64,000 bases of DNA from a virus (taxonomy: Duplodnaviria > Caudoviricetes). The DNA is taken from the IMG/VR virus record IMGVR_UViG_3300037067_007020, positions 37,226 to 101,225 of that record, one strand, 5' to 3'. Under the pieces are notes generated by a model. That model had not been told where the DNA came from. It searched no databases and was given only the letters and a program-made list of their open reading frames with translations. Positions 3,414-37,243 of this stretch are shown here, piece by piece. Each line of letters starts with the position of its first letter. Positions within the stretch are counted from its first letter, which is position 1. Position numbers and translations under genes: made by a program.

Positions 3414-4076
3414 TTAGTTCATAAAAAATATTTTTACACAAACTCCACTGTTTTCAACCATTCGTGTGCAATTTATCCCATCGGTTTTTGGTTCTCCTGT
3501 TGATATATTTACACAGTCAGAAGTATTGGCAATTCCTGGGTCAGCAAAAACAGAGAATTTGGATGTGTCTACATATTCTAAATATATACCTATTCTTCTT
3601 CCTGTACTAGTGTGATCTAATTGCCAAGAATCAGAATGTTCTATATTAACCTTAATTGTTTTGCCCGAAATCATTCCGTCTATACTGTCAGCATAAACAG
3701 ATGAGGATTTGGCATCGTTATAATCATTTCTTGTTATCTGATTTGTAGAAACCAGATTAATAATGTTTGGTTTAGTATTCATTCCATGATTAAAAATATG
3801 TGAACCGGGAGTATCAATATAAATCCAATCAGATTCCCAAGTATTAAAAATTTCGTTAGTCGATTTAAACTCAGATAAAATCGAAAGATCGTCTATTGTC
3901 AAAGGTCCTATGTTAACACCAGAAACTAAATCTGAACTATCGGTTCCGTTGTGTGAATGATTGTAAAGAGTTTCCTGTTCCAAATAATAATGATTGTAAT
4001 TTTGAAAACTCTGTGAATCAAAAACTTTGCCTTCGCTTAGTCCAGAAATATGTGTTTGTTCTATATAAGTACTCAT
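3414..4076 (-). CDS. short tail fibre/receptor-binding protein, paralog 3
   Basis: N-NH-YL...HSHNG N-terminus and W.SDW...H.M...P motif shared with the two upstream ORFs. Confidence 0.55.
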   Translation of the reverse strand: MSTYIEQTHISGLSEGKVFDSQSFQNYNHYYLEQETLYNHSHNGTDSSDLVSGVNIGPLTIDDLSILSEFKSTNEIFNTWESDWIYIDTPGSHIFNHGMNTKPNIINLVSTNQITRNDYNDAKSSSVYADSIDGMISGKTIKVNIEHSDSWQLDHTSTGRRIGIYLEYVDTSKFSVFADPGIANTSDCVNISTGEPKTDGINCTRMVENSGVCVKIFFMN

Positions 4077-4100: not shown

Positions 4101-4664
4101 TTAAAACAAACAAACTATTCTGCAATAACAATTCTCAGTCATTCCTGTATAAAACAAAGATGTTCCTGCTGAATCTTTTCCTTCGTTAAACTGAACCGTA
4201 ACTGAATCAAAATTTATATCATAACAATAAAATCCTCTAGTTTGAAAACTTCCTCCGTTAGAATTTTTCATATCTAATTGAGCAATCTGATAACGTACGG
4301 GAGGATTTATTGTTCCGTCTGCTATTTGACACTGAACTAATTTTGGGAATTTTTGTGCATTGTGAGCAAATACAGTAGCGTTTGTTTTGTCAACAGAAGT
4401 CCAATCTGATATATATAAATACCCTCCGTCTTCAATTAATCCCAATAATTTCGATAAGGTAAGATTAGTACTTTTTATAGTGTCTGTAACAAAAGGTCCG
4501 TGGTTTACTGTATTCTTCAATTCTCCACCATTTCCATAATTGTTATGATCATGTTCTTCGACTATTATAGTATTGAGGTATTCATGATTTTTATTTTCAT
4601 AAAAACCATTGATTACGTCGCCTTTTTTATAAATATATGGTATGTTTGTTCCTGTAGCTACCAT
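4101..4664 (-). CDS. short tail fibre/receptor-binding protein, paralog 2
   Basis: ENKNHEYL...HDHN; YISDW...FAHNAQKFPKLV. Confidence 0.55.
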   Translation of the reverse strand: MVATGTNIPYIYKKGDVINGFYENKNHEYLNTIIVEEHDHNNYGNGGELKNTVNHGPFVTDTIKSTNLTLSKLLGLIEDGGYLYISDWTSVDKTNATVFAHNAQKFPKLVQCQIADGTINPPVRYQIAQLDMKNSNGGSFQTRGFYCYDINFDSVTVQFNEGKDSAGTSLFYTGMTENCYCRIVCLF

Positions 4665-6545: not shown

Positions 6546-9500
6546 TTAAATCTCGATTTGTTGAATTTTAGATACCTGAGAAGCGTTTTTAATTATATCA
6601 TATCTGCTTTTTATTTGGTCTTCTGTTAATATTCCGCTATGCATTGCAATCGTATCTATATAAACAGCAGTCGAACCATTGTACAGATTAACGGTGTGTG
6701 TATCAGTAGCAAATCTTCCTATTTCTAAAGGTAAAGTCAGATCATCCCCAGCTTCTACAAAAGTACTATTGGCAGGAAGAGAAACTGTTTCTCCTACATA
6801 TGTTCCGTCTATATAAACTTTTCCAGAAACATCGTTTCTTATAAAAGCATAATAATGCCATTTTCCGTCATCTATCGGACCACCTATTATGTCTTGAACT
6901 GCCAGTGATGTGTTATAATTGGTTCCACTACATGTAAATGTAAAACTATAGTTTCCAAATAGTTGATGTATGCCTATTTGATCAATAGTTTGGCCTGTTC
7001 TGCCTATGTTATAAAACATATCGTATGTTTGAAATCCAGCTAATGCTCCTGTATCATATTTCATGACAGTTTCTAGTGTATAAAAAGGATAGTTCATAAA
7101 ATTTTGTCTTGGAGTTGTAAATGTTTCGGCCCAATCTGTTCCACAACCAGAAAAATAAATCGCATTTCCGTTTATAAAACCAGTTGAGATTGTGCCACTA
7201 ACAAGACTTCCTGCATACTGACCTATTACTTCATTTGTTACATACCCTGAAGTAAATGTTGTTGATAATGTATGTTTCAACTTTGTGTTATCTAAAATAG
7301 GAAGTGTTTCTTGTGTTGTTATGTTATATCTTTCAAGCTTTAAACCATAATCCAAACCTTTGTTATAGTGTCGAGTAGAATTATAATCTTTTGGTCTTTC
7401 GATTTTTTCAGAAACATCGTTCCAAAATTCTAAGGGATTATATTCCGTACTAGTTTTTCTCATAATATCAAACAAATCTTTTAGCGTTTCGTCATATCTA
7501 GGTTCTTCGTTATTAAGATTAACATGGGTCTGAACAAGACCATTTTTGTAAGTATGACTAATGCTTACTGATGTATTTTTTATTTCTGCATCCTCTGGAA
7601 CTTTAGAGTTCCATTTAGTATTTGTGTTTCCAATTATGTTTTTATTATAAAAAGATTTGTCTTTCATTTGGTCATGATAAAATCCTCTTATGTTGATAAG
7701 TTCGTTTCTTTTTAACGAAATGTCTCCAAATGGCAAATCAAATTCTATTGATTTAGAAGGAAATGCCGATTTATCAAGTTCTGAAAGAATAACTAAATCT
7801 GCTGCCGAATAACTTGTTATGTTGTTATCGTTAATAGTTTTCTTTCTTGAACCATATATTTCAACAGATTCTTGTACCTTTCCCGTTCGTTTAACAAGAG
7901 TTTCTCTTTCGTCAGACCATTTAGAATCATAGTTTGCAACAAAAATAGCATTTTCAAATATAGGTTTGTTGGCAGAGTCTTTTTTTATGTTTGGCAATAT
8001 GTCATTAAATATTATGTTATTGTTTGTTATTGTAACATCAGAATCGGAAAAATAATTAAATCCCATGTTATTAATGCCGATTCCTGAAACAGTTGTTTCT
8101 ACATTAGTTATGTTGTCAGGATAAATCCAAAATTGATCTTGATCTTCTCCTGTAGTATTAAAATTTGTAAATCCATCTGGAGGGTTAAAATCTAGTCCAA
8201 CAAACAAGTCTTTTCCGTTTGTCATTGTGTTTGTATACAATAAATCATAATTGCTGTTTGTGCTAGTTATTATTCTGCCTTTTAATCCGGCATTTGTTCC
8301 TTTAACTATCAAAAAATTCCAATCAGAATATGTTCCGCTTCCAATCATTGTTTCTTTTACGGGAAAATAAGAACTCCAAAATCCTGATAGATATGTATCA
8401 TGATAATATTCAGACTCTTCTCCTGATGTTGCAACAAAATTCATTACATTAACACCTTCTACCATTCCTTGTGGAAGTGCATACAATTTCCAAGTTCCTG
8501 AAGAAGATGTTGTATCTATCGGATATTCTGTTGTAAGTTGTTTTGTATCATCAGAAAATATGTTTATGTTGTTAAAAGAAGACTTTCCTTCAATTCTTTC
8601 AACAACATTTCCTCCGATTAACTTAATTTCATTAATTATTTGAGAAGAATCTTGTGTTTTTTTAAAATTTTGTATGTCATGTTTTCGATAATATACTTTA
8701 TCTGGGTATGTGTTAGGTACTCTGAAGTAAAGTATTTCTTCGATGTCTCCATTTTCATTAATTCTAGGTTCTATCCAAAAATTAGCTCCAACTTGCTTGG
8801 CAATTCGGTCAATAGCATTAGGAATATTTTCTTCATTAAATATTATATACTCTATGTTCGATATATTAACTGGTTCGTCGGTTACATAGTTTCCATTTTC
8901 ATCATAAGTTCCGCCAATAGATTCGTCCGTATACGAAACCCTAGTTCCTTTATAAAATTCATCTATTATATGTTTTACAATATCTTTTGCAGTTCTATTA
9001 ATATAAACATAGTTGACTGTGTTATAATTAAGTTCGTGTAATGCATCTATAGCCTGAACCTGTAATATAGACGAATCATCATCCGATTGTCCTACTTGTG
9101 TTACATTTCCAACAAATATTATGTCAGAAGAAAAATCAATAGAATTATTTTCGCTGTTACCAAAAACTGCTATCATACAATCTGTATCTATTTCTCCAAT
9201 TTCCTCGTATCTTCTTTTGTGTTGTAAATCTAGAGTAGATGCCGTTTTGTTTATTCCTAATTTTAAATTAATGTCATCGATATCCATTGCAAGGTCTTTG
9301 TTTTGCATCCATTCTCTATTTGACCCAAAATAACGAATCGCAAGTTTGGATTGACCTTTGTTTAATTTTTTATTATGCCCTTGAACAAATCTTTCGGGAC
9401 AATATTTTCTGTTTCCGTTAATATAAACAGGAATGTTTGCTATTCTATAACCTTCCCCATTAGATTTATTCACATAACCCATAATACGAATTAAACCCAT

Positions 9501-11444
9501 TTGAGGACTATCTGAAAGAAGACTTGAAAAAGGAATTTTTGTCCGTATATAAAATTTTGTACTTCCATGAGGAGCTATTGTTCCTATAGAAAGTCTTTTT
9601 GCATAAAATTTAGAAATAATGTATTTTTCCATATCTGGGTCTATTGTCAATAGATTATCTAGGGCATCGTCTAGATTTCCTAGATACTTTCCATTAAGAG
9701 TTTGACCTTCTAGTAGATATTGCATCATACTAACCCAATTGGAACGATCTTTGCTTATTTCTAAATATTTATACAATTCTGAACTTGCTTTAACAAAATC
9801 CTGATATGTTTCTGTTGTTTGAAATCTCTGCATATAAGGAGGATTTACAACACTGACCGAGACATCTGTCATATATTCCTCACTCGTATTAATAATTTCT
9901 ACCTCTTCGTCATATCCTTGTCTTCCATAAGGACTGTCTTTCATTTCTATAGTCTGTTCTGGATTTATTTTTATACAGTCGTTAAAAGACTCATAATGTA
10001 ATTCTAACAACTGATTAAAATACAACCCAATTTCATTATAAGACTCATAACCAGTTTCTCTTATACTTGTGCCAAAATAAGGAAGACTAAAAAAATAATC
10101 TCTGTTTGTATCATTAAACGTATAAGAATTGTTCGTTAATGATTCGGACATATTAACTACTAGATTTTGTTGATATGATGTATATGTATTCCCTATGTGC
10201 GGAACAAGTGTTATATACGACTGACCTTTTGTTCCTGCAAATATTCTAAACGGAGAAAAAATGTGAACTAAAGGAATCATTCCTTGTCCAAATCCACCGT
10301 CAGGTCTTCCTTCTATTCCTTGCATTTTGTCTGTGAGATAATTCCATTTTCCGTTACATAACATTCCTCCGGGATACTGAGTTCCGTTGTTAACCAATGA
10401 CGATTCAGCAGTCATTGATATGTCTGTGTCATATACTTGAAAATTTCCTCCACACCTTAATGCTATTGCTTTCATTACTTTCCGTTCGGTATTGTTTGCA
10501 TCATAATCAACGATTTTGCCTTCAACAACAATTCTTCCAAAAAAAGTATCTGCGTAATAGTCCATTTGACCACTAGGCAAAGAACCGTGTATTATTCCGG
10601 TTTTATTCCTAATTGAATCATATCCTACTTCTGCCCACTCAGCACCATTGTTTCTTACATACATTGTTTTTGTTTCGCCAGATGCTATTGTTCCTACTGA
10701 TAATTTATATGTTCCACTAAACCAATTAATTTTATCTGCTGAAAATTCAAATTTATCTGACAAAACAGGAGTTTTTCCACTAGGACTGTTTAAAAATACC
10801 TCTGTTTCTGTTAATGAATTGTTAAATTTGTTTGTTATGTAAAAAGGAGTCCAAGGAGACTTAATGTCTGAGACATAGGTAATTCCCGGAAGCATTATTT
10901 GTGATATGGACTCATAATCAACTCCATATTCTTCCCAGTACCCAGCTTTTTGGATTGTTCCGAACAAATTATTTTGCCCTATTGCAATATAGTCTCCTGT
11001 TGAATGACCACTTGTTCCAATCAAAAGTTCGACTAACTGTAACAGAGGTTGGTTATCCTGATTTCCAGAAACAGCGACTTTTAATTGATATATTCCAGAC
11101 AATCCATTACTTCCCCCATCATAAGTGCTTTCTAATAAATTGTTGCCCGATGTTTGAGACACTGTTGTATTGGACAAAGAAGTCCATGTTGTTCCATCAG
11201 AAGATATGTATGTCAGAATTTGATCATAATTTCCGTTAGAAGGAATGTTGTAATGACAATGAACCTTTGCATTTCCTCTTCCGTACCAAGCATCTCCTAG
11301 ATTCCAAGTGTATGTTTCTCTTTCTGAAAGCGAAGTATCTAGGTTTCCGTCGGTAAGTTGTTGAACAGGATTTGCACTACTGTTGTATCCTATAACATTA
11401 AATATAGCATCGGTATTCTGAGATTCTGTATAATATCTTGTCAT
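6546..11444 (-). CDS. tail tip/hub (Tal-like) protein with N-terminal discoidin/Ig-like domains and C-terminal LamG (concanavalin A-like) domain
   Basis: 1632 aa after Dit. LTDGNLDT/YISSDGTTWT at the N-terminus; hub-like IFVGNVT..VQAID..IAKQVGANFWI..IINEIKLIGG; LamG DDGKWHYYAFIR..VYIDG..ILTEDQI. Confidence 0.75.
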   Translation of the reverse strand: MTRYYTESQNTDAIFNVIGYNSSANPVQQLTDGNLDTSLSERETYTWNLGDAWYGRGNAKVHCHYNIPSNGNYDQILTYISSDGTTWTSLSNTTVSQTSGNNLLESTYDGGSNGLSGIYQLKVAVSGNQDNQPLLQLVELLIGTSGHSTGDYIAIGQNNLFGTIQKAGYWEEYGVDYESISQIMLPGITYVSDIKSPWTPFYITNKFNNSLTETEVFLNSPSGKTPVLSDKFEFSADKINWFSGTYKLSVGTIASGETKTMYVRNNGAEWAEVGYDSIRNKTGIIHGSLPSGQMDYYADTFFGRIVVEGKIVDYDANNTERKVMKAIALRCGGNFQVYDTDISMTAESSLVNNGTQYPGGMLCNGKWNYLTDKMQGIEGRPDGGFGQGMIPLVHIFSPFRIFAGTKGQSYITLVPHIGNTYTSYQQNLVVNMSESLTNNSYTFNDTNRDYFFSLPYFGTSIRETGYESYNEIGLYFNQLLELHYESFNDCIKINPEQTIEMKDSPYGRQGYDEEVEIINTSEEYMTDVSVSVVNPPYMQRFQTTETYQDFVKASSELYKYLEISKDRSNWVSMMQYLLEGQTLNGKYLGNLDDALDNLLTIDPDMEKYIISKFYAKRLSIGTIAPHGSTKFYIRTKIPFSSLLSDSPQMGLIRIMGYVNKSNGEGYRIANIPVYINGNRKYCPERFVQGHNKKLNKGQSKLAIRYFGSNREWMQNKDLAMDIDDINLKLGINKTASTLDLQHKRRYEEIGEIDTDCMIAVFGNSENNSIDFSSDIIFVGNVTQVGQSDDDSSILQVQAIDALHELNYNTVNYVYINRTAKDIVKHIIDEFYKGTRVSYTDESIGGTYDENGNYVTDEPVNISNIEYIIFNEENIPNAIDRIAKQVGANFWIEPRINENGDIEEILYFRVPNTYPDKVYYRKHDIQNFKKTQDSSQIINEIKLIGGNVVERIEGKSSFNNINIFSDDTKQLTTEYPIDTTSSSGTWKLYALPQGMVEGVNVMNFVATSGEESEYYHDTYLSGFWSSYFPVKETMIGSGTYSDWNFLIVKGTNAGLKGRIITSTNSNYDLLYTNTMTNGKDLFVGLDFNPPDGFTNFNTTGEDQDQFWIYPDNITNVETTVSGIGINNMGFNYFSDSDVTITNNNIIFNDILPNIKKDSANKPIFENAIFVANYDSKWSDERETLVKRTGKVQESVEIYGSRKKTINDNNITSYSAADLVILSELDKSAFPSKSIEFDLPFGDISLKRNELINIRGFYHDQMKDKSFYNKNIIGNTNTKWNSKVPEDAEIKNTSVSISHTYKNGLVQTHVNLNNEEPRYDETLKDLFDIMRKTSTEYNPLEFWNDVSEKIERPKDYNSTRHYNKGLDYGLKLERYNITTQETLPILDNTKLKHTLSTTFTSGYVTNEVIGQYAGSLVSGTISTGFINGNAIYFSGCGTDWAETFTTPRQNFMNYPFYTLETVMKYDTGALAGFQTYDMFYNIGRTGQTIDQIGIHQLFGNYSFTFTCSGTNYNTSLAVQDIIGGPIDDGKWHYYAFIRNDVSGKVYIDGTYVGETVSLPANSTFVEAGDDLTLPLEIGRFATDTHTVNLYNGSTAVYIDTIAMHSGILTEDQIKSRYDIIKNASQVSKIQQIEI

Positions 11445-11456
11445 TATATTTCCTTG

Positions 11457-13163
11457 TTATATGTATCTATCTGTCCATTTAACTAGAAAATCTATATCTA
11501 CTAAATTTTCGGAATCTGTGTTGATTGTCCATTTTGTATAATCATCGTTTTCTAAATAAACAAAATCTGTAATTGTTGTTGTTTTGTTTATTCTGTTTAT
11601 ATATATGTTGTTAGCATAATTGTCTTTTATTCCTGTAGAAATATCATATTCTTTAACAGTTTTTTCTAATGTGTCTATTTCTAAAAGATGATCTGATTCT
11701 AGTGTTCCAAAATATGATATTCTTCCTTCTTCTAAAGAACCAGACGAATAGTGTATAATGTCAAATCCATCTAAATCGATTAGGCCTCTATTAATGACCT
11801 GAATACGAGGATAAATTTTATAATTTCCAGCTATTGGTATATTTCCTCCTGCTTTTGTATATTCTAAAAAATCATTTGCATATAAAGAGCAACCACTTTG
11901 GTGTACTAACTGATCTGTTTTGTCTGTTAATGCTCTAGTAGCATATTGTGTATAATTAGAAACAAAACCCGATATTTTATAAGTAAAATCTCCTCCGTCA
12001 TTTAGACCTTTTATATACCCACTTATATCTCCTAAAGTTACAAATTGAGAAGCCGTAAAAACTTTGTCTTGTAACAGAACATTTCGATAAATTCCTGAGT
12101 AAATAGGTTCATATGCTATTCCGTACAATCCACTAGGATGCCATGTATTTCGTGTATAAGCTGAATTAAAAGAGTTACCGTGGAGATAGTCTGCATTTAA
12201 TAAATTAATGTCACCTGACACAGAATATTCGTTTATACCGCTCACAAGATTTTCTATTGTAGAATAGTCTTGATATAAAAACTGTATTTCTGACAATCCT
12301 GATGTAAACATTATTTTATCAGAATCTATTGTCATTGTTCCGTTAAAATATGAACAAACTTTAAAATAATCGGTATATGTTTTTATATAATCATCCGTTA
12401 TTATTGCATATGCATTTGTTCCTCCTTGACCTGAATATGTAAAATTTCCTATCAATGAACGAGATATTTTGGGCTGATTGTATAAAGTATAAGATATGTT
12501 AGACTGATTGCCAGATACGCTAATTTCTGAACTAAAAATACATCCGCTTGTTTGAGTATCTACTATTTCGTAATATCCTTCGTTTAGTCCTGATTGTATA
12601 TAAAGTATTTTTCCTATGTCATTAGAATTAAATCCACTATAATTTTCTACATAATCTTGAGAAAAGAAATAATTTCCGCCATCTACTGTTCCATCTATAC
12701 CAGTTTTATCTACACCAGCAACTAACATTTTAGGAACCTGTGAATACCAAAAAGGGTCAATAATGTCAAATTCTATTGTTCCTCGAATATAAGTTCCCGC
12801 ATATCCTAATTGTTCCGTAAGAGAATCCTTTTTATATGATACTTTAACATATCTCTTAGGAGGGTCAAAATACAATTCAAGGGATTGATATGAAAGAAGA
12901 AGATGAATTTCTTGCATTATAGCATATATGTCTTCGTGTGTCGAAACAATAATTTCAACAGACATAGTTAATGTTTTTGGCATAAGACCACCATAAACTT
13001 CAAATCCACCGTCTCTTCCAAAAACAGTATATATTGACTTGTTTCGTTCTGGCATATCATACAATCCTTCTATACCAGTTATATATACATCGTCTTTAAA
13101 AAGATAATAATTGAGTCTGTCTGGTGTTCTTAGTGTTATGTTGCTATATCTAGTTGCTCCCAT
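11457..13163 (-). CDS. distal tail protein (evolved Dit with a large insertion)
   Basis: Immediately after the tape measure. GRDG...IEFDIIDPFWYS N-domain and GNYKIYPRIQV...LEIDT C-domain flank a ~300-aa insert. Confidence 0.75.
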   Translation of the reverse strand: MGATRYSNITLRTPDRLNYYLFKDDVYITGIEGLYDMPERNKSIYTVFGRDGGFEVYGGLMPKTLTMSVEIIVSTHEDIYAIMQEIHLLLSYQSLELYFDPPKRYVKVSYKKDSLTEQLGYAGTYIRGTIEFDIIDPFWYSQVPKMLVAGVDKTGIDGTVDGGNYFFSQDYVENYSGFNSNDIGKILYIQSGLNEGYYEIVDTQTSGCIFSSEISVSGNQSNISYTLYNQPKISRSLIGNFTYSGQGGTNAYAIITDDYIKTYTDYFKVCSYFNGTMTIDSDKIMFTSGLSEIQFLYQDYSTIENLVSGINEYSVSGDINLLNADYLHGNSFNSAYTRNTWHPSGLYGIAYEPIYSGIYRNVLLQDKVFTASQFVTLGDISGYIKGLNDGGDFTYKISGFVSNYTQYATRALTDKTDQLVHQSGCSLYANDFLEYTKAGGNIPIAGNYKIYPRIQVINRGLIDLDGFDIIHYSSGSLEEGRISYFGTLESDHLLEIDTLEKTVKEYDISTGIKDNYANNIYINRINKTTTITDFVYLENDDYTKWTINTDSENLVDIDFLVKWTDRYI

Positions 13164-13201: not shown

Positions 13202-16200
13202 TTATTGAAAAATAAAGCTTTGCCCACGTAAACTTTCGCTCAAAGAAATTTTTCTTGTAACGTCACGTACCAATCTATCTAAGTCTGCATCTGATCGAAC
13301 AGTAGCTGTTATTTGGACATCTTGTTGTAATTTAAACACAGTTTCATCTAACCATCTTCGTGTTTGCATTGTAAGTTGATTAGAATATCTTTTTTGTAAG
13401 TCGATCAATCCTTGTAAATATTTTTTATTTCCAACATTTTCGTCTCTGGTCATTGCTACATTATGCTGAAGTGTTTCTAGTCTGTCTTTAAACGATTGTT
13501 CAGGAGAAGAGAGTCTTGCAAGTTCTTGACTGTATTGTGAAGTATCTCCACCAGCTTTGCCTACTTTTTTTATTATTTTAGTCAGAGCGTCCATCTTTTC
13601 TCTTGTTTCGTCCATTGAAGGCGACATTCTGTTAAGAGCATCATTATAATCATTTACGGCTTTCTTGGCTTCTTTTTGTCTTTGTTTTTGTTTTCTGTCT
13701 TCTTCTCCGCCAAACAAGCCACCTGCAAGAGAACCTAATATAGAACCAACTATGGTTCCTGTTGGTCCAAATATACTTCCTATGGCTCCACCAATCCCAC
13801 CACCACTAGTTGCTCCTTTGGTTCCTTCTTTTCCTGCTCCCAACAATTGTGCGCCAATAGAACCAGTTATTCCGCCTTGACCAAATCCAGCACCCATGGT
13901 ACTGAACATGCTTTGCATTTCAGTAGGAAGTGCAATTGATGGCATTTGAATCCCTAATTCTTTGAGATTCATTGCTCCTGAAAAATTACTACTAATGTTT
14001 GATGGAAGTGCAGAACCTGATACTGATGTTTTTGTTCCTGCTGTACTTGGTTTTGTTCCTGATTTACCTAATATTGCTGTAGTTAAACTTTCTGTCGCAT
14101 TTATAAGCTTCAATTGTGTTTCAATTTCTGCCGAAGTAGCTTCTATCAGAGCAGCTTGTTCAGGATTTTTAATAATGGCGGCAATTTGATTTTCTCCAAA
14201 AAGTCCATTAAGTGCCTGTGTAGCATTTTTAAATTCTTCAAGTCGCTTGTCTTTTTCGCTAGGACCTGTAAATGCTTTTGTTATCGAGTTTGCAAGTCTG
14301 TCTAATTCTGCTTCGGTTTCTGTTGTATATATTCCTCCAATAATACCTTCTGATATGTTTGTTGCAAATTTTTCTTTGATATCTTCAGTTACTTTAGTAA
14401 AAGAGTCTGATATTTTGGTAACATCAAATCCTTTTTGTAAATTAAATGAAAGAAATGTTTCTTTTAATGCAGTTTTCAATGAACCTGAAATCACTTTTCC
14501 GGTTCCATCAGCAATATCAGCCAAGTTTGCATAAGATGCTGCAAGACTAGATATTTCTTCAATTGTCGATTTTACTGCCGTTTTCTGATCTTTTATTTGT
14601 CGTTCAAATTCTTCGTTTCTTTGTAAAATATTATCCAGAGCAATAATTTGTTCTCGATTTGCTATCTTACTTGCATCATCTATGCTAAGTTTTTCTATTC
14701 TAGCTTCTATGAGATTTTTTTCTTTTTCGTTGAGAGTTGTTATGCCATTAGCATAAGAAATCATGTTTTTTGTACTTATATTATAAGAATCTGCTACTTT
14801 TTTACTTACATTAAGAAAATTCAAATAAGATTCGTTTGATTTGTCTAAATCGTTTTTGAGTTTAACATATTTTTCTGATAACAACGTTGATCTTGTTATA
14901 AGAATTTGTTTTTTTACAGCCGATTCATCATATACTCTTCCTTCTTTAGCAAGAGCTATTGTCACAATGTTTTCTAGTGATGCCAATTTTTCTAACTTTT
15001 CGTTATACAGTTCAGTATCATTTATAGCCGCTTTTTGAGTTTCTAACAAATATTTTAGAGCTTTTCCTCTTTGTTCTAACAAAGATTCCATATCTATGCC
15101 CGGTTTAATAACTTCTGGAACTAACGGAGTTTTTACAAGTTCTTGTTCAAGTTTTTTGTTTTCTAAAATCTTTTTCGCTCGTTCTGCTCGAATATTGTTA
15201 TATTCTGTGTCCAAGGAAGAGGTATCAACTTTTCCGCCCAATCGTTGTTGTCTAGTTTGTCTATTTTTGCGTTTGTCAAATAATTCTTGTTCTTTTTTAG
15301 CAAGAGCATCTATTTCTATCTGTTGCTCTTTTAATTTGTTAATAATTACGTCATTTTTAACCTGATTTAATACTTCATAAAATGTTTTTGTTGCTGTAGT
15401 TAAGTCTTTCATAGATAACGCTTGTTTAACAAGGTCTTTTTGTGTCTGTGTTAACGATATTCCTTCTTTATCAAGAGCCTTGTTTAGTTGGTCTAAAACA
15501 TTTTTTCCGTCTTTACCGCTTTTTATTTGACCTTGGTATGTTGCCTGAAAAACAGCAAAACTTTTTCCAAGATCAGAATAATTTTTATACAGATTTCTTG
15601 CTTCTTCTGATTGTCTTTGAAAAGAAGCGTTTAGGTTTTCCATTTCGTTTTTACTTTTCCCTGCTTTTTCTGCCATATAAACAAGACCTAATCCTATGGC
15701 AGTAAGCCCTAAAGTAATTGCGTTTGATTTTGTAAATAACGTTCCTGCAATTCGTGCCTGATTAAAAGCAAATGCAACTTTAGTTGCTGCAAGTGCTATA
15801 GCTAATAATGCAGCATTTGTAGCTACTCCTGATTCTGTTAACGTAGATAATCCATATATCATTGATGTTGTATATTTTGTCATATCAATAAGAGCAGGAA
15901 TCATTGCTTTTCTGCTAGTATCTGCTAATTCTTGTATAGATGCTCCTGCTAATTCTAATTGTTTTTGCCAAGAACGCATAAATCTATCGTTTTCTGTCAT
16001 AGATGAACCAGCAGAATCTAAACTCAGTGTAAGATTTTTTATTACTTGGTCCCAACTATTCATTATTGCAGCAGCTTGTGAAAAATGTCTAGCTCCTGCC
16101 ATAGATTTTAATATAGTAGCCTTTTGAATATCGTCTAGTTTTCCCCAAACACCAGACAATTCTGCCAATGTTTCTGTAAAAGATTTATATGACTTATCTG

Positions 16201-17470
16201 CGTTTATGATTGTAATTCCTGCTGTTTTCCACAAAACATTTCCAGCAGATTGTCTCATATTAACATCAGCATATCTAGATGCCATCATTTTTAATGTTGT
16301 ACCAACAGTGTCACCAGATTCTCCTGTAACTTTAATCATAGCAGAAGATATTGCATTTAATTCGTGCATACTTGCACCTACAAGTTTAAATGCAGAACCT
16401 GTTTTTTCTGTTGCTGCTGCTAAATCTTGTGCCGTAGCACCTGATTTATTTTCTAATGAGTTCCATGCGTCTAATATTCTCATCGAATCTGATGCAGACA
16501 TATTAAACTGATGTATTGTAGATGTTAAAGACTTAATTGCATCGTCTTGACTGAAAGCAGCAATATTTACTGCTGCCATTGCTGTTCTTGTTAGCAATTG
16601 TGCTTCTTCTACGGTTCTTCCCATACGAACAAAATCTCTCATGGCTTTTAATCCGATAGTAAAAGAAACACCAAACTCTCTTCCATATACCTTTGCTATA
16701 GATATAGAAGATTCCATGTACTTATTTAATTGTTCATCAGAATCTGCAAAATCTGCTACAACCTTTTCAAGTTCGATTAGTGTATAGTCAATGTCTTTAA
16801 GAGCAGTAAATAGTCCTTTTATAGCTCCTATGGTTCCAAACACTGCTCCTGTCATTAATGTCCAAAAAAGAACCTTTGCTCCAATAATTCCCATTGTTAC
16901 AGCCATGCCTTGCATTTCGCCATTTACTGTAAACAAGGCTCTTTTCATTTTCATTCCAAAACCTTCTGCCAATCTTGCTGCTTCTATTTGTTTAGTATTG
17001 AAGGCAGACAAAGCTTTTTCTTGTGCTTTCATGTCTCCTACAATAGATTGTACGGGACTTTTAGCTGACTTTAGTGCTTTCGATTCTGCTTTGTCTTGTG
17101 CAATTACTTGTTGAGCATATGTCTTTTCCATAGTTCTTGCTGATTTTGCTGCTTCTTTTTGCTTCAGTTCATATGCTTTTGTATTGTCTCGCAATTCTTT
17201 ATCTAATGCTTTTGCGTTTTCTTTGGCAATTTTTTCTGAATATTTTAAATTGTCCTTATATGCTTTTTCTTGTAATTTGTCATAATCTTTTTGTGCTTTT
17301 TCTTGTATCTTTACCTTGTCTGAAATTGATTTTGCTGCTTCTTTTTCACTACCAGAAGATTTGTTTGTAGTTGATTTGGACTGAAGCGAAGTCATGTAAG
17401 ACTCAAATTTCTTTGCGTCTGCCATTGCTTTTGAAATATCTAACGAAAGGGTTGCTTGAAAATCGGTCAT
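13202..17470 (-). CDS. tail tape measure protein (TP901-family core)
   Basis: 1422 aa, Ala/Lys-rich helical; AMRDFVRMGRTVEEAQLLT..AM..VN core; Gly-rich hydrophobic C-terminal segment; follows the chaperone pair. Confidence 0.92.
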   Translation of the reverse strand: MTDFQATLSLDISKAMADAKKFESYMTSLQSKSTTNKSSGSEKEAAKSISDKVKIQEKAQKDYDKLQEKAYKDNLKYSEKIAKENAKALDKELRDNTKAYELKQKEAAKSARTMEKTYAQQVIAQDKAESKALKSAKSPVQSIVGDMKAQEKALSAFNTKQIEAARLAEGFGMKMKRALFTVNGEMQGMAVTMGIIGAKVLFWTLMTGAVFGTIGAIKGLFTALKDIDYTLIELEKVVADFADSDEQLNKYMESSISIAKVYGREFGVSFTIGLKAMRDFVRMGRTVEEAQLLTRTAMAAVNIAAFSQDDAIKSLTSTIHQFNMSASDSMRILDAWNSLENKSGATAQDLAAATEKTGSAFKLVGASMHELNAISSAMIKVTGESGDTVGTTLKMMASRYADVNMRQSAGNVLWKTAGITIINADKSYKSFTETLAELSGVWGKLDDIQKATILKSMAGARHFSQAAAIMNSWDQVIKNLTLSLDSAGSSMTENDRFMRSWQKQLELAGASIQELADTSRKAMIPALIDMTKYTTSMIYGLSTLTESGVATNAALLAIALAATKVAFAFNQARIAGTLFTKSNAITLGLTAIGLGLVYMAEKAGKSKNEMENLNASFQRQSEEARNLYKNYSDLGKSFAVFQATYQGQIKSGKDGKNVLDQLNKALDKEGISLTQTQKDLVKQALSMKDLTTATKTFYEVLNQVKNDVIINKLKEQQIEIDALAKKEQELFDKRKNRQTRQQRLGGKVDTSSLDTEYNNIRAERAKKILENKKLEQELVKTPLVPEVIKPGIDMESLLEQRGKALKYLLETQKAAINDTELYNEKLEKLASLENIVTIALAKEGRVYDESAVKKQILITRSTLLSEKYVKLKNDLDKSNESYLNFLNVSKKVADSYNISTKNMISYANGITTLNEKEKNLIEARIEKLSIDDASKIANREQIIALDNILQRNEEFERQIKDQKTAVKSTIEEISSLAASYANLADIADGTGKVISGSLKTALKETFLSFNLQKGFDVTKISDSFTKVTEDIKEKFATNISEGIIGGIYTTETEAELDRLANSITKAFTGPSEKDKRLEEFKNATQALNGLFGENQIAAIIKNPEQAALIEATSAEIETQLKLINATESLTTAILGKSGTKPSTAGTKTSVSGSALPSNISSNFSGAMNLKELGIQMPSIALPTEMQSMFSTMGAGFGQGGITGSIGAQLLGAGKEGTKGATSGGGIGGAIGSIFGPTGTIVGSILGSLAGGLFGGEEDRKQKQRQKEAKKAVNDYNDALNRMSPSMDETREKMDALTKIIKKVGKAGGDTSQYSQELARLSSPEQSFKDRLETLQHNVAMTRDENVGNKKYLQGLIDLQKRYSNQLTMQTRRWLDETVFKLQQDVQITATVRSDADLDRLVRDVTRKISLSESLRGQSFIFQ

Positions 17471-18943: not shown

Positions 18944-20506
18944 CTAGTCTCTGTGTATGGTCACTGAACCATTTTTTGCAGTCCATGAAAAACTACGTGC
19001 TGTGTCAGAACCTACTGCTATTGGGATACTAGAATTTGAAATCTGTATCTTTGATACGGTAAATCTAACTATTTCAGAAGTGTTGTCTGCCGGATTTATA
19101 ATTTTGATCTGCAATGCAATGTCATTAGTATTTGTGTATGTACCATGTTCATTATAATCAAACTGTAAATCTGTGGTGGCAGTACTTCCTTTGGTTAATA
19201 GTTTTACAAGACTTAAATCTCCGTCCATAGAAGCTACGTCGCCTGTCACAACCGGAACTTTAGCAGGGGTAAAATAATCATTTACAAAACCTTGTCTCTG
19301 TTTTCTTTCACGATTAAGAGACGTTTTAATACTGGCAGAAGAAACTGTTTGTAGTTTACTATCTCCATAATAAACTGGTACATATCTTCCGTCAACATTA
19401 TCTGGAGTTCCTGTATGTGTAAAATCAACTGAGTAATCGGTTGGTTTTGCAACAGAAGACCAGAATGTAAATTCGTATCTATCTCCTAAAGCCATAGACG
19501 TTGCAAATGGCATAAATGTATGAGAAGCGTCAGTATAAACAAAATCTAAATCTACTGCGCTAGTTGCTTTTTCTGCCATTTCTCCTTGCGTACCATCTAC
19601 TTTGGTTCTTGTCACTTTGAAGAAAAATTTACCAGATAACCCGGTAGAATTTCCGTTCATATGAGGTACTTCAGAACCTACTAAAACTCTAGAATCTAAT
19701 ACAATGTTTCCTGCTGCAACATCGGCAGCATTGGCATATGTTGCATTTCTATACACATAACCTTCTTGTGAATAGTACGAATTTCCTTCTGTATCAAAGG
19801 ATTCTTGTGCATTTCCATTTGCATTGGTATCAATATTGAAAGAATTAGCTATCATTCCTTCTGCATAATCAGTTTTGAAAACCGTGTCGCTAGAAGAATT
19901 GTCTCTTCCAACAACCAAGAAATCAAGTTTTGCTGATTTGAAATCTGCTGATTCCCAATCTTGTTCTTTTGTTATGTCAAAGGTAGCTTTATCTCCTGTA
20001 ACTAATAAACCAGAATGTAAAGCAACAACTTCAACACCCGGAATGTCTTTGATAATCGTATTTGCGTCATATGATATATTGTAATGACCAGAAATACAAA
20101 TCTTGTCTTCAGCCTTTGCTTCAATGGTATAAGTAATCTTGGAAGTTCCTGAAGGAAAATTAACTGGAGAAACAATCTTAACTATTGTATTTGTTCCGCC
20201 AGAAATTGTCGTTCCAACAGAATCTGCTGGATTAGTCTTGTCTCCCATTTTCGAAGTGTATAGCTGAATCAGATCAGTATCTACTAACAAAGAAGCTAGT
20301 GTGCCTTTAAATTGAGTTGCACGAATACTTACTCCTCTTTGTTCTTCGTTACCTATTTCATATACTGCTTCATTCGGAATATCAAAAGAAAATTCCTGAC
20401 TCTGTAACCCTTTACCTAACACAAAAGGACCATATGGACTTGCAACATGAATCTGATACCTATCAGCGTTCAATGCAAACATATCTCCAACTGGGGTAAT
20501 TGTCAT
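18944..20506 (-). CDS. major tail (tube) protein with accessory domains
   Basis: 520 aa, beta-rich, strong AGGAGG RBS, downstream hairpin, synteny. Confidence 0.7.
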   Translation of the reverse strand: MTITPVGDMFALNADRYQIHVASPYGPFVLGKGLQSQEFSFDIPNEAVYEIGNEEQRGVSIRATQFKGTLASLLVDTDLIQLYTSKMGDKTNPADSVGTTISGGTNTIVKIVSPVNFPSGTSKITYTIEAKAEDKICISGHYNISYDANTIIKDIPGVEVVALHSGLLVTGDKATFDITKEQDWESADFKSAKLDFLVVGRDNSSSDTVFKTDYAEGMIANSFNIDTNANGNAQESFDTEGNSYYSQEGYVYRNATYANAADVAAGNIVLDSRVLVGSEVPHMNGNSTGLSGKFFFKVTRTKVDGTQGEMAEKATSAVDLDFVYTDASHTFMPFATSMALGDRYEFTFWSSVAKPTDYSVDFTHTGTPDNVDGRYVPVYYGDSKLQTVSSASIKTSLNRERKQRQGFVNDYFTPAKVPVVTGDVASMDGDLSLVKLLTKGSTATTDLQFDYNEHGTYTNTNDIALQIKIINPADNTSEIVRFTVSKIQISNSSIPIAVGSDTARSFSWTAKNGSVTIHRD

Positions 20507-23062: not shown

Positions 23063-23962
23063 TTATGCTTTTAAGTTAGACAAAATACCAATCATCTTCG
23101 GAACCCTTAATATGGTCTTGAATGACCGTTTTGCATAGATTCTGAGTGTCTGTAGGTCTTCGTCCCATTTCCGTCCAGCAGTTATTGGTACGGATTCACG
23201 AATCTGTGCAGGTAAATTAGAAACCATAACAATTGCTCTACCTGACAAAATAGGGGTCAAAGTACCAGCAACATTGTAAACAACGTCACTCTTGAGTATT
23301 CTTAATCCACAGATTTTCTCAATAGTAATATCACCAACAACATCCCTAGTATATTGATTTGCATCCCTGATTTGTTCTGACAGAAGCAAATTCTTATAGT
23401 CCTCTGCACCAAGAATTATTGTGTCTGCATCCATTTGCATATCTGCACGAATGAGATATTTTAATTCTTCGATATCATTTATAGGTACTGAACTTGCAGT
23501 CGTAGTCCATACAGTAGTAGCATTTCCTGTGTTGATAGTAGGATACTTGGTAGTATTTGTCAATTCTACCACCGCATCATTTTCAACAGCAAGAGCTAAT
23601 CTCTGTGCAATAGTAACAGCAGCCCTAGATACCGGGTCAATAAAATTATAAATATTACCATTGCGAAGTTCTTTTTCAGAAAACTCCATCTTTTCTCTAT
23701 AGTCTTTCACATTTCCTGTCATCTTGGTATATTCGATGGCATTGTCTTCTGCTTCGGCCTTTTCGCCAATCTCCGCAGGAAGATTATATTCAGTAGTATC
23801 TGATTCCACATGCCATATAAAAGTATCCAAAGATTCTACGACAGGTATAACTTGCTGCATTACCAAAATCCCTTGAGTTAACTTAACGATCAGTTTAGTT
23901 AAATTCTCAGAACTTAATGCGGTTGCATTAGCAACAAGTGTTCCCAAATCTGCATTAGTCAT
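23063..23962 (-). CDS. major capsid protein (HK97 fold)
   Basis: 299 aa after protease/scaffold/cement; EIGEKAE, ALAVENDAV, PINDI..., ADTIILG..DY..LL, ICGLRI; strong RBS and terminator. Confidence 0.85.
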   Translation of the reverse strand: MTNADLGTLVANATALSSENLTKLIVKLTQGILVMQQVIPVVESLDTFIWHVESDTTEYNLPAEIGEKAEAEDNAIEYTKMTGNVKDYREKMEFSEKELRNGNIYNFIDPVSRAAVTIAQRLALAVENDAVVELTNTTKYPTINTGNATTVWTTTASSVPINDIEELKYLIRADMQMDADTIILGAEDYKNLLLSEQIRDANQYTRDVVGDITIEKICGLRILKSDVVYNVAGTLTPILSGRAIVMVSNLPAQIRESVPITAGRKWDEDLQTLRIYAKRSFKTILRVPKMIGILSNLKA

Positions 23963-24009
23963 TTGTTTTTCCTCCTTTTAAGGTTTATTTTATTTTTTTA
24001 ATCTATTTT

Positions 24010-24381
24010 TTATATTGTTAACCAAACTTTACCAGTTCCACCAGAAACGGCTGTTGCGAGACAAACACCAAGAGATTCTCCTGAAGTATATCCGTTACAA
24101 CCTCTAGCCATTCCTCTGTTTCCAGTAACTATTTTCTGACTAACAGTACCAGCAGCATCAAAGGGCATATTAACAACAGATTGCGTACGGTTAACAGTAA
24201 CATTTTCTGCACCAGAAACATAATCGTTGGCAATAAACCCATCGGGTTCCTCGCCAGCAACAGTGTTTCTTACTCTCATTTCTGCGTTGACCTTAATAAA
24301 TCCAGCATATATGTTCTCAGCAGTATGAAAAGTAATAGCTTTACCATCCCTAAATGCGTAGAAATTCAATTGTCCTACCAT
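24010..24381 (-). CDS. capsid cement/decoration protein (DUF2190-like)
   Basis: 123 aa Gly/Ala/Val-rich beta protein (GVCLATAVSGG) directly upstream of the capsid gene. Confidence 0.65.
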   Translation of the reverse strand: MVGQLNFYAFRDGKAITFHTAENIYAGFIKVNAEMRVRNTVAGEEPDGFIANDYVSGAENVTVNRTQSVVNMPFDAAGTVSQKIVTGNRGMARGCNGYTSGESLGVCLATAVSGGTGKVWLTI

Positions 24382-24410
24382 TCTTTTTCCTCCTTTTTTG
24401 AAATAGTTTT

Positions 24411-25073
24411 TTACTTATTGAAACTTTGTTCAATTGCATTAGCTTTATGTATCAGTCTTGACAATACCGAAAAGCCTTTTTCAGCACCGTATATCTCATC
24501 CAAAGGTTTTGGTTCATCTTCTTTATCCTTGTCTTTCTGTTCTTGATCTAAGACTTCCTGACCAGTTTTGGAAATCTTAGAAGGATTAAGAAGCTCATCA
24601 TTTTTCTTTTTCTGAGCTTCCTTATCTTTCTGTTCTTGTGTTTTCTTGTCACCTTCCTCTTCTTTAGATTTTTTGTCTTCTTTTCCTGCAATAAATACTT
24701 TCCAATCAATATCTTGCGCCGTTATGATAACATTATCTACATATTTTTTTGTTTCTTCGTCCTGTTTAGTATACCAAGTAGAAATAGGCTGTATTCTCTC
24801 TTTCTTCTTGTATTCATTTAATATAATATCTTTCTCAGAAGTGGATTTTTTTATTTTCTCGATTTCGACATCCTTCGCTTTAGCTACTTCTTCTGTCTTT
24901 TTTACAGTTTCGGCAGTTTCTTTGGCAAGTTTTTCAATATCCTCTTTGGATTTTGTTATTGTTTCTATTTCTCTTTCTTTTGATTTAAGTTGTTTTTTCA
25001 TTGCATCTAACTGTTCTTTTATAACCTCAAGGTCTTCTGTTGTCTTATCTTCTTTTTTCTGATTATCTGTCAT
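24411..25073 (-). CDS. head scaffolding protein
   Basis: Highly charged K/E coiled coil between protease and cement/capsid. Confidence 0.7.
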   Translation of the reverse strand: MTDNQKKEDKTTEDLEVIKEQLDAMKKQLKSKEREIETITKSKEDIEKLAKETAETVKKTEEVAKAKDVEIEKIKKSTSEKDIILNEYKKKERIQPISTWYTKQDEETKKYVDNVIITAQDIDWKVFIAGKEDKKSKEEEGDKKTQEQKDKEAQKKKNDELLNPSKISKTGQEVLDQEQKDKDKEDEPKPLDEIYGAEKGFSVLSRLIHKANAIEQSFNK

Positions 25074-25129
25074 GTCTTTTCTCCTCTTTTTTATTTTTAT
25101 TCTAATAAACTTTGGTCACACGATTCAGG

Positions 25130-25861
25130 TTAGTTTTCTATATCGTCTTTGTTTTTCCAAAAATTTAATAAATCTTTGTATATTGCAGAAATTTGTATTT
25201 CGGCATGAAGTTTTTCATATAAACCAGAAATTTCATTGTTCATAAATTCTTTTTGTTTTTTTAATTCGTCATTTTCTAAAAGAATTTCTTTGTATTTATC
25301 TTCCCAGTTTATTTCTTCTATAGACACATCACTCTCCTTTTGTTTTGAATTTTCGTTTTTAGATGCATACACTATTCTTGTTCCGTCAAATGCAGTATAG
25401 TCTTTGTTCAGTATTGCATTTCCAATAAAATCGCTAATTTCCTTTATTCTTGTTACTCCGTTGTTTTCGTATCCTATTGAAGGTATAAGTTCCCAAGAAT
25501 TTCCTAACAGGTCTTTGTTTTTGATTATTTCGTCAACATATTCTTTTTGAGATTCTTCATGTAAAACAACATCAGCCTCTAAATATTCTATTCCGTCTTC
25601 TGTAACAATTTCTCCTGCATCTAAGATATGTCCAACTTCGATATATTTGCCATTTTTCTTATGTTCGTCAGAACCATAGTGAATAGGCATATGGGAAAGT
25701 TTGTTATCTAGAATTAGTTTGTTAGCTGCTTCTCTTGTCAGTATTAGCGAACCATCTTCGTGATTAGAAGGACGATTGATAGGAGCAACTTTTATTCGAA
25801 TCAATTTCGCATTTTTTCTATCCTTGAGAAATGGATATTTGTCATAAATGTTTTCAGACAT
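25130..25861 (-). CDS. prohead maturation protease
   Basis: MPIHYG..H...VGHI...LGNSWEL...GNAIL pattern (His/Ser assemblin-like), C-terminal coiled coil, synteny. Confidence 0.65.
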   Translation of the reverse strand: MSENIYDKYPFLKDRKNAKLIRIKVAPINRPSNHEDGSLILTREAANKLILDNKLSHMPIHYGSDEHKKNGKYIEVGHILDAGEIVTEDGIEYLEADVVLHEESQKEYVDEIIKNKDLLGNSWELIPSIGYENNGVTRIKEISDFIGNAILNKDYTAFDGTRIVYASKNENSKQKESDVSIEEINWEDKYKEILLENDELKKQKEFMNNEISGLYEKLHAEIQISAIYKDLLNFWKNKDDIEN

Positions 25862-25862
25862 C

Positions 25863-25988
25863 TTATTTGCTCCTTTTTTGTTTCTTCGTAGAAACTATTT
25901 TTGTTCCATATTTTGTTTTCCATTCTTCGTATACTTCTGGAACGTTTAACATCATATATAATCTTTGTTTTATACTTCTGAATGGCAT
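25863..25988 (-). CDS. small basic phage protein (41 aa, MPF-x-S-xx-QR type; not in ORF track)
   Basis: MPFRSIKQRLYMMLNVPEVYEEWKTKYGTKIVSTKKQKRSK, AAGGA RBS. Confidence 0.65.
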   Translation of the reverse strand: MPFRSIKQRLYMMLNVPEVYEEWKTKYGTKIVSTKKQKRSK

Positions 25989-26000
25989 GGCAGTATTCCT

Positions 26001-30242: not shown

Positions 30243-30668
30243 CTAAATGTCTTTTAATTTATCTTTGATGTTGTTTATTCTAAGACTTACTGCTTGACGA
30301 GATATTTTTTCTTTTTGACCTTTTCTTTTGTCATTTTTAGAAAGTATTGTGAAATCCATAATATCTGATATTTCTTCTTCGGTTTTACCTTGTATATAAT
30401 ACAGTTCGGCCAGTTTTTGTTCTTCTTGTGTTAGTTGTTTTAATTTAAACCAAACATATATATTTAAGAGTTTTTTCTCTTCACTATCTACAATTCGGCC
30501 TTTTTCTAGTTGTATTTCGTCAAGAGTTTTGTATTTTAAATCGTCTATTGTTATTTTGTGTAATATTCCATCTTGAGTACACACAAAACCAAGATCAGAT
30601 TCCAATATTGCAGAATTTTCAAAATTTTCTTGTTCAGTTGTTGTCATATTATTGTCCTCTTTATCCAA
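30243..30668 (-). CDS. sigma70 region 4-like helix-turn-helix protein
   Basis: LKQLTQEEQKLAELYYIQGKTEEEIS...ISRQAVSLRINNIKDKLK. Confidence 0.75.
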   Translation of the reverse strand: MDKEDNNMTTTEQENFENSAILESDLGFVCTQDGILHKITIDDLKYKTLDEIQLEKGRIVDSEEKKLLNIYVWFKLKQLTQEEQKLAELYYIQGKTEEEISDIMDFTILSKNDKRKGQKEKISRQAVSLRINNIKDKLKDI

Positions 30669-36686: not shown

Positions 36687-36688
36687 AA

Positions 36689-37243
36689 CTAAAACCAATC
36701 CTTTGTTTCGGACACACTCGGCAATTTTAAATCTTTTTCTGATAATGTAAAATCAGAATTGTTAATAAAACCTTCCCAATCAATTGCTAAATCACAATCA
36801 TTGTATATTATACCAGCATTGTTTTCTAGTGAAAAAACATTATCGACTTTATAATTGACAATTGTATTGTCTTCTAATGTTATAAAGCCATGTGCCATAT
36901 AATTAGGAATAAATAATTGTTTGTTGTTTTCTTTTGATAAAAAAATACCCAGATGTTTTAAAAATGTTGGTGAATTTTTTCTAAGATCAACAACTATGTC
37001 CATAATAGAACCAGACAAAACTCTAACTAACTTGGTTTGTTGATATGGTTTTTTCTGATAATGCAATCCTCGTATTGTTCCTTTTTTTAAACTCAACGAT
37101 TGATTTTCTTCGTCTCCTATATCAAAAGAATTGTCATTAAAATCAATTTTCTTGAAAACTGACATAAAATAACCACGAGAATCATAATATATATCTGGTT
37201 CTATTGTTTTAACACCTTCTATTAATAAGTGTGTTGATTTCAT
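36689..37243 (-). CDS. rmlC: dTDP-4-dehydrorhamnose 3,5-epimerase
   Basis: DSRGYF, GTIRGLHYQ, KLVRVLSG.I.DIVVDLRK.SPTF, FIP..AHGF.TL. Confidence 0.95.
   Translation of the reverse strand: MKSTHLLIEGVKTIEPDIYYDSRGYFMSVFKKIDFNDNSFDIGDEENQSLSLKKGTIRGLHYQKKPYQQTKLVRVLSGSIMDIVVDLRKNSPTFLKHLGIFLSKENNKQLFIPNYMAHGFITLEDNTIVNYKVDNVFSLENNAGIIYNDCDLAIDWEGFINNSDFTLSEKDLKLPSVSETKDWF

Follow-up and report, generated by a model that had tools for sequence, protein, structure and literature searches.

Late operon and tail-tip genes

When a 64,000-nucleotide stretch of an uncultured phage (hereafter the window; bases 37226-101225 of the 101-kb IMG/VR virus contig IMGVR_UViG_3300037067_007020) was analysed, the dipeptide Ser-Gly (SG) was observed at three to four times chance in the add-on domains of two tail-tip proteins, Dit and a hub-like protein, and not at all in their core assembly domains. 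The phage is known from metagenomes only. Its contig is about 71% complete (about 29% of the genome is missing) and has a G+C content of about 30%.

The genes concerned lie in a late operon on the minus strand. It starts with an island of sugar and glycosyltransferase (GT) genes and continues with two open reading frames (ORFs) of 535 and 525 amino acids (aa), a 746-aa fibre-like protein and the capsid protein. After the capsid gene come the head-tail genes, a 520-aa tail protein, two chaperone-like ORFs and the tape measure, and the operon ends with the 568-aa Dit, the 1632-aa hub-like protein and several small distal proteins. The Dit gene sits between those of the tape measure and the hub-like protein. 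In the following list the reverse dipeptide, Gly-Ser, is given as GS, and pLDDT is the predicted local distance difference test score.

13202-17470, minus strand: tape measure (PhageMin_Tail, 2.7e-23)
11457-13163, minus strand: Dit (P0001), 568 aa, directly downstream of the tape measure, with a structure match of its ring domain
12729-13163, minus strand: Dit ring domain, aa 1-145, no SG; assigned by structure match, the sole confidently modelled part (pLDDT about 70-80)
11739-12638, minus strand: SG-bearing middle region of Dit, aa 176-475, 14 SG and 1 GS; delimited by counts and shuffles
11460-11738, minus strand: conserved C-terminal region of Dit, aa 476-568, no SG; delimited by counts and homologue alignment
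6546-11444, minus strand: tail hub or Tal-like protein (P0002), 1632 aa, directly following Dit, with a C-terminal Laminin_G_3 match at aa 1489-1611

Ser-Gly in Dit

The 14 SG of Dit start at residues 176, 191, 206, 217, 244, 288, 308, 316, 344, 356, 381, 398, 423 and 474, while residues 1-175 and 476-568 contain none and the whole protein has a single GS. These counts agree exactly with the preliminary description of this DNA, which had placed no SG in the first approximately 175 residues and all 14 between approximately 175 and 480. When the sequence was shuffled so that the composition within each segment was kept (segment boundaries, here and below, were set after looking at the data), 3.6 SG were expected for residues 176-480 and none of 20000 shuffles reached 14 (p<5e-5). 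Under random placement, the observed pattern had a p value of 1e-4 to 1.5e-3.

An AlphaFold model of Dit, based on 5 sequences, had a mean pLDDT of 40 and was usable for residues 1-135 only, with residues 146-568 below 50. Residues 5-145 of the model matched the Dit proteins of p2 (2wzp_P, Z 11.1), the 80alpha baseplate and SPP1 (2x8k, Z 9.7), and the ring part also matched the TP901-1 Dit and related baseplate proteins (Z 9-11). Because the model matches the rings of known Dits such as those of p2, 80alpha and SPP1, the SG-free N-terminus is the ring-forming domain, the conserved part for which it had been taken earlier. Siphophage Dits have a C-terminal galectin-like domain, and those termed 'evolved' carry carbohydrate-binding insertions. 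For residues 146-568 nothing was found in Pfam, PHROGs or the PDB chain sequences, and an atlas structure search gave template modelling scores of at most 0.41.

Ser-Gly in the hub-like protein

The 1632-aa protein is probably the tail hub, judging from the gene order and from weak atlas leads (the Sipho_Gp37 and Prophage_tail families, score 0.85). It contains 19 SG and 8 GS. Eight SG lie at residues 99-291, none at 292-981, five at 982-1120 and six at 1399-1603, so the preliminary count of eight in the first approximately 300 aa, none in the next approximately 680, then five, then six at the C-terminus was reproduced in full. A gap of at least 691 residues had a p value of about 5e-4 under random placement. 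The segments, with the SG numbers expected from within-segment shuffles, are as follows.

10545-11444, minus strand: hub N-terminal module, aa 1-300, 8 SG (3.3 expected, p 0.008), 2 GS
8505-10544, minus strand: hub central region, aa 301-980, 0 SG (3.5 expected), 2 GS
8025-8504, minus strand: SG-bearing segment of the hub, aa 981-1140, 5 SG (1.5 expected, p 0.008)
7251-8024, minus strand: hub segment, aa 1141-1398, 0 SG (0.65 expected, uninformative alone)
6549-7250, minus strand: hub C-terminal module with LamG, aa 1399-1632, 6 SG (1.7 expected, p 0.003)

For hub residues 301-980, which were examined for gp27-like trimeric hub domains, no Pfam, PHROG or PDB match was obtained. The N-terminal 300 residues correspond to a separate 304-aa gene in a related contig (L004), and the next gene of that contig is a homologue of hub residues 319-640. 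Because of this separate gene, the N-terminal approximately 300 aa appear to be a detachable accessory module. The hub of the window may be a fusion, or the arrangement in L004 may be a split. When L004:2265-4143 was compared with window positions 8505-11444, the 304-aa gene was seen to overlap the start of the hub-core gene.

Fibre-like protein and other structural proteins

The window-wide excess of SG is concentrated in the fibre-like protein, Dit, the hub-like protein and some small structural proteins. Background levels were seen in the tape measure, the capsid protein, the 520-aa tail protein and the two ORFs of 525 and 535 aa.

26001-28241, minus strand: fibre-like protein (P0003) of 746 aa, bearing HxH repeats and a LamG domain, 27 SG (6.5 expected), 4 GS
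23063-23962, minus strand: capsid protein (PHROG major head protein, 2.5e-14)
18944-20506, minus strand: 520-aa protein, 5 SG and 4 GS, no family match, upstream of the chaperone-like ORFs and the tape measure

The fibre-like protein, which is encoded between the 525-aa ORF (28564-30141) and the capsid gene, has the largest SG excess of the window. Its N-terminus consists of five or six repeats of a VSGTYTPLVDFNIHNH-like unit with an HxH motif, which we take to resemble the metal-binding repeats of tail fibres, and is followed by the LamG domain. In a model of the latter (pLDDT 63), four SG sites were located in loops or at strand starts. One of the small distal proteins (220 aa; 3414-4076, minus strand) has an HSH...VSG element resembling the fibre repeats and contains 4 SG against 1.9 expected; it shows weak similarity to its neighbour at 4101-4664.

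The position of the 520-aa protein fits a major tail protein, and the name tube, under which it had been described earlier, is unconfirmed. The clustering reported for it, four of five SG in one segment of approximately 65 aa, was found at residues 102-165, but it is weak (p 0.03) and the protein as a whole shows no excess (5 SG against 3.8 expected, and 4 GS). Neither the capsid protein nor the 520-aa protein has a Ser/Thr-rich C-terminus, as judged from sequence features only. The 535-aa (30661-32268) and 525-aa ORFs gave no family match, and PDB sequence searches with Dit, the hub-like protein, the fibre-like protein and the 520-aa protein returned nothing significant.

Specificity of the motif

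When the SG-rich segments were pooled, including the 746-aa fibre-like protein, SG was the most enriched dipeptide (60 observed against 16.5 expected, z 10.7). In the same segments the observed and expected numbers were 10 and 16.5 for GS, 10 and 16.8 for Thr-Gly (TG), 14 and 13.1 for Asn-Gly (NG) and 9 and 10.7 for Asp-Gly (DG). Val-Ser was also enriched (26 against 9.4), and the approximate consensus is [V/I/T]-S-G-[I/T/L]. In the SG-poor segments SG was the most depleted dipeptide, with none observed and 5.2 expected. The non-structural proteins of the phage contained 60 SG and 53 GS, with 55 expected for each. As a control, 21 LamG-containing fibre homologues from other sources were counted, and these were symmetric (281 SG and 278 GS, 198 expected).

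The preliminary description had considered that GS might be just as common as SG. It is not, since the SG:GS ratio is 14:1 in Dit and 19:8 in the hub-like protein and pooled GS is at 10 against 16.5. The excess is thus Ser-specific and directional, from Ser to Gly.

Several simple origins of the motif were tried and rejected. A DNA-level motif does not fit because the codons at SG sites are diverse, with five Ser codons and four Gly codons in use; the signal is therefore in the protein and not in the DNA. General richness in Ser and Gly was rejected on the composition-preserving shuffles and on the GS, TG, NG and DG counts. Avoidance of the deamidation-prone Asn-Gly was rejected as well, NG showing no depletion in the SG-rich segments. 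Finally, common ancestry of these segments was rejected, as an all-against-all BLASTP comparison revealed no similarity among Dit, the hub-like protein and the fibre-like protein.

Conservation in related proteins

A search of 1.8 billion representative proteins yielded only a handful of Dit homologues, all of them from short contigs (0.9-5 kb). Searches of IMG/VR with Dit, the capsid protein, GT2 and the fibre-like protein found no usable relative with a long contig, and neither did a Dit query against metagenome contigs and GTDB genomes. Among GenBank phages, queries with the Dit-hub DNA, Dit, the 535-aa ORF, GT2 and GT4 gave distant GT4 matches only.

Three homologues (P0004, P0005 and P0007) form a clade with Dit at 51-86% identity, and within it the SG serine is the best-conserved residue class. 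In P0004, from JGI sample 3300048657, 9 of the 14 SG serines are retained, whereas the remaining serines are kept at 5 of 22 positions and the other residues at 41%, and P0007 retains all five SG serines and none of five other serines. Dit and P0004 have 14 SG each, and at four of the five lost sites a new SG stands no more than 5 alignment columns away (p 7e-4). The motif is conserved, with small positional shifts, in relatives down to 26-51% identity.

The same partition was seen in L004, whose Dit is 51% identical. This Dit has 14 SG (3.2 expected) and the 304-aa homologue of the hub N-terminus, at 28% identity, has 7 (2.1 expected), as against 1 (1.9 expected) in the hub-core homologue. 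Five of the eight sites of the hub N-terminus are kept in the 304-aa protein, three at identical positions and two shifted by 1-2 columns.

In the case of P0006, a 35%-identical Dit of equal length from run SRR15526462 that aligns end to end, 1 of 14 SG serines and 4 of 14 SG glycines are retained, together with 13 of 23 other glycines; the genes adjoining P0006 show no SG excess. Because a protein of the same layout does without 13 of the 14 SG, the Dit fold does not require SG at these places, and one lineage maintains the number of SG under selection. A constant count with shifting positions is the behaviour of a short functional motif rather than of a fixed structural residue.

Glycosyltransferase genes

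Seven genes were found to encode eight GT domains in all; they share the strand of the structural genes and lie upstream of these. The first pair (33101-35558) lies two genes upstream of the 535-aa ORF.

33101-34162, minus strand: GT4 (Glycos_transf_1, 3e-31), overlapping the next gene
34155-35558, minus strand: GT2 (Glycos_transf_2, 2e-24), overlapping the previous gene
36036-42213, minus strand: sugar island with a methyltransferase, RmlC, a split RmlD, a flavoprotein of the UDP-galactopyranose-mutase (UGM) type, a second methyltransferase and three GT2, from family matches
39825-40613, 40528-41217 and 41458-42213, minus strand: the three GT2 genes of the island, from family matches
47740-49614, minus strand: GT2-GT4 fusion, from family matches
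49636-50853, minus strand: GT4, from family matches

RmlD (dTDP-4-dehydrorhamnose reductase, 37251-38145, minus strand) is split into two overlapping ORFs, of which 37747-38145 covers profile positions 2-105 and 37251-37796 covers positions 122-283; the split may reflect a frameshift, an error of the assembly or a pseudogene. A hexapeptide acyltransferase gene lies on the opposite strand at the contig end.

All GT genes were assigned to GT2 or GT4, and no heptosyltransferase (GT9) family was among their Pfam and NCBIfam matches in this approximately 71%-complete genome. The best NCBIfam match of the 251-aa GT2 at 41458-42213 was the SunS family (TIGR04195), at 54.9 bits against a cut-off of 350 and over profile positions 62-211 of 421; with this score and partial coverage, membership of the SunS family, whose enzymes have a C-terminal substrate-binding domain, was rejected. 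In a hydropathy scan of the 101-kb contig, which lacks about 29% of the genome, there was no polytopic membrane protein of the kind of a flippase, a polymerase or an initiating phosphoglycosyl transferase, and no hydroxymethylase or hydroxymethyl-pyrimidine pathway for DNA glycosylation was found in this contig.

Candidate function of the motif

Because the phage also encodes eight GT domains, the SG motif is a good, though chemically unproven, candidate for the site of sugar attachment on the phage's own tail. We tentatively favour, at a little below an even chance, the reading that SG, usually as [V/I/T]-S-G-[I/T/L], is a Ser O-glycosylation acceptor on peripheral tail and fibre modules. The phage's own soluble GTs would act in the cytoplasm on the late structural proteins, the targets being the Dit insertion, the three hub modules and the HxH/LamG fibre. 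The SG serines would be placed at short turns between beta-strands of these modules, where one transferase would attach the first sugar and others would extend a glycan that probably contains rhamnose and methylated sugars. The motif is absent from the Dit ring, from the centre of the hub and from the 525-aa ORF at 28564-30141, all of them core assembly parts; glycans there might hinder assembly, or the enzyme might reach exposed turns only. The presence of soluble enzymes just upstream of the late genes and on the same strand would be as expected for direct cytoplasmic glycosylation of the virion. The statistics of the motif, its partition by domain, its conservation and turnover within one lineage and the presence of the enzymes are observed, whereas the action of the enzymes on these proteins, the SG serine as the site and the exposure of that site are inferred.

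The fuller claim is possible but on balance doubtful, namely that SG serves as a genuine sequon for Ser-specific O-glycosylation, recognised by a cytoplasmic multi-enzyme pathway of the phage, which coats only the distal, host-facing add-ons of tail tip and fibre and not the capsid. As for the earlier proposal of a surface-modification signal that is excluded from assembly interfaces, it is supported in part, in that the motif is real, directional, Ser-specific, conserved and confined to add-on-like modules, and a large set of soluble glycosylation enzymes is encoded; the modification and the exposure of the sites are putative, and the part that concerns the tube is weak.

Several points weigh against glycosylation of the SG serines. 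Part of the SG excess of the fibre-like protein is due to its internal repeats. There is no enrichment in the capsid protein, which has 1 SG, or in the 520-aa tail protein (5 against 3.8), unlike the glycan-bearing capsid and tube of mycobacteriophages. No GT scores high enough for a known family of protein-glycosylating enzymes; the matches to SunS, SdgA and GtfA are far below the respective cut-offs. The enzymes could instead serve the modification of DNA or of the host envelope, in a genome of which about 29% is missing. Lastly, the flanking residues are typical of beta-strands, which fits a purely structural turn motif too.

Such a turn is a serious alternative, which we nevertheless consider rather doubtful. 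SG would then be an unmodified, lineage-specific turn motif (a tight hairpin or a beta-bulge) in beta-rich accessory domains, and the partition would arise because helix-containing or interface cores have few such turns. The residues that favour beta-strands around the sites (V, I or T on the N-terminal side and I, T, L or Y on the C-terminal side) agree with it, as do the LamG model, with its four SG sites in loops or where strands begin, and the fact that the fibre SG belongs to a repeated HxH structural unit. However, the classic turn formers NG and DG are without enrichment, TG is under-represented, the Ser specificity is left unexplained, and in unrelated beta-rich LamG proteins SG equals GS. 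In addition, P0006 has the same layout and replaces 13 of 14 sites, mostly without keeping even the glycine (4 of 14 kept), and sites that move by 3-4 residues while the count stays at 14 would be unusual for a fixed structural position. A turn and glycosylation are not mutually exclusive, as known Ser O-glycosyltransferases act on such turns.

Another modification or interaction at SG (phosphorylation, acylation by the hexapeptide acyltransferase or recognition by a chaperone), with the GT island serving the DNA or the host envelope, is unlikely. It is selection on the motif that is shown and not its chemistry, a hexapeptide acyltransferase gene is present, and phage GTs hypermodify DNA too, according to Pyle 2024 as cited in PMC12619734; a weak dNMP-kinase match was also obtained. 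On the other hand, the scanned ORFs (mainly of at least approximately 150 aa) included neither a protein kinase nor any other enzyme that modifies proteins, the hydroxymethylase of a DNA-glycosylation route was not found, and the sugar island is on the strand of the late structural genes and upstream of them.

That the SG pattern is a by-product of composition or of post hoc boundaries, with chance clusters, is highly improbable and is largely refuted by the shuffles (p<5e-5 for Dit and 0.003-0.008 per hub segment), the equal partition in the independent relative L004, the dipeptide counts (SG most enriched, GS not enriched) and the LamG control, even though the SG-rich segments hold 10-11% each of Ser and Gly as against approximately 7% in the hub centre, the boundaries were picked after seeing the data and the 520-aa protein cluster reaches p 0.03 only.

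Comparison with known glycosylation systems

In the chlorovirus PBCV-1, cytoplasmic enzymes encoded by the virus glycosylate the capsid; one of them, A064R, is a multidomain protein that includes rhamnosyltransferase and methyltransferase activities in separate domains. It is like the pathway proposed here in being viral, cytoplasmic and made up of several enzymes, in its rhamnose and methylated sugars, in having GT domains fused to one another and in using acceptor motifs other than the canonical ones; there, however, the glycans of a eukaryotic virus are N-linked to Asn of the major capsid protein, whereas here the candidate is an O-link to Ser of tail proteins. The animal proteoglycan xylosyltransferase likewise uses a minimal Ser-Gly dipeptide with Ser as acceptor, and is a Golgi enzyme that prefers acidic flanks. 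A homologue of this enzyme was not found here, and the residues that flank SG in the phage are hydrophobic or beta-branched.

No description of a Ser-Gly sequon in phages was obtained from the literature searched. To our knowledge, glycosylation of phage virions has been shown experimentally in mycobacteriophages only, where antibody recognition was altered. The virions of Che8, Rita and others are glycosylated by phage enzymes (Freeman et al. 2023, as cited in PMC11256854 and PMC12619734). As far as these citing papers describe them, the mycobacteriophages resemble the present phage in encoding GTs, which there decorate the phage's own structural proteins. They differ in that the glycans are at the C-termini of capsid and tail tube, whereas the candidate sites of the present phage are SG pairs scattered over modules of the tail tip and the fibre; its enzyme set, known from genes alone, is also much larger.

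Two bacterial systems are comparable and, together with the mycobacteriophages, set precedents for the elements of the favoured reading. TibC is a cytoplasmic heptosyltransferase that modifies serines and not threonines of TibA, including Ser-313 in N-S-G-G (PMC4358343). TibC and AAH, acting on TibA and AIDA-I, share with the favoured reading a soluble cytoplasmic enzyme and many target serines on a beta-rich surface protein (PMC4358343), but such enzymes are heptosyltransferases of the GT9 type with an iron-finger and no GT9 heptosyltransferase was found among the GT genes here, the other mapped TibA site is S-A, and TibA is a beta-helix with regular repeats. GT2 enzymes of the SunS type glycosylate Cys in G-C-G-G/S loops (PMC6405829). 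SunS, ThuS and PalS are alike in that a GT2 transfers sugar directly to a Cys or Ser preceding Gly in a flexible loop (PMC6405829); the phage GT2 at 41458-42213, at 54.9 against 350 bits, is not a member.

Occurrence of the phage and other genes

Short contigs identical to the Dit-hub region (window 6546-13163) were observed in groundwater runs and in landfill metagenomes of two other studies. A groundwater metagenome, possibly the sample of the assembly, was the only run with the whole region, and no RNA run was listed for it. When Dit-hub contigs from four runs were compared, the fragments were identical and no variants were seen. Because the contigs from groundwater and landfill showed zero differences, the phage or a near clone of it is widespread, geographically or temporally.

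Three further loci of the contig were recorded. The anaerobic ribonucleotide reductase NrdD (1598 aa; window 42930-47726, minus strand) is broken by intein splicing domains with LAGLIDADG homing endonucleases, Pfam giving three intein stretches and four LAGLIDADG stretches. A family-B DNA polymerase of 1195 aa is encoded on the plus strand (L006:5944-9531, corresponding to genome positions 23944-27531), and its C-terminal residues 867-942 weakly match the primase small subunit. The junction at which the late operon and the genes of the plus strand diverge is bordered by a ClpP-family protease with an N-terminal extension (51890-52660, plus strand) and a PD-(D/E)XK nuclease (50843-51769, minus strand).

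Significance

The domain partition supplies built-in controls, since the SG-free cores and the SG-poor homologue P0006 can be set against the SG-rich modules. If the glycosylation reading is true, a short dispersed sequon would mark the coated tail modules, and phage glycoproteins could be predicted from their sequences. Glyco-engineering would gain soluble protein O-glycosyltransferases that act on a simple acceptor motif. For the phages themselves it would point to a means of masking or adjusting the receptor-binding tips in the face of host defences, proteases or decoys.

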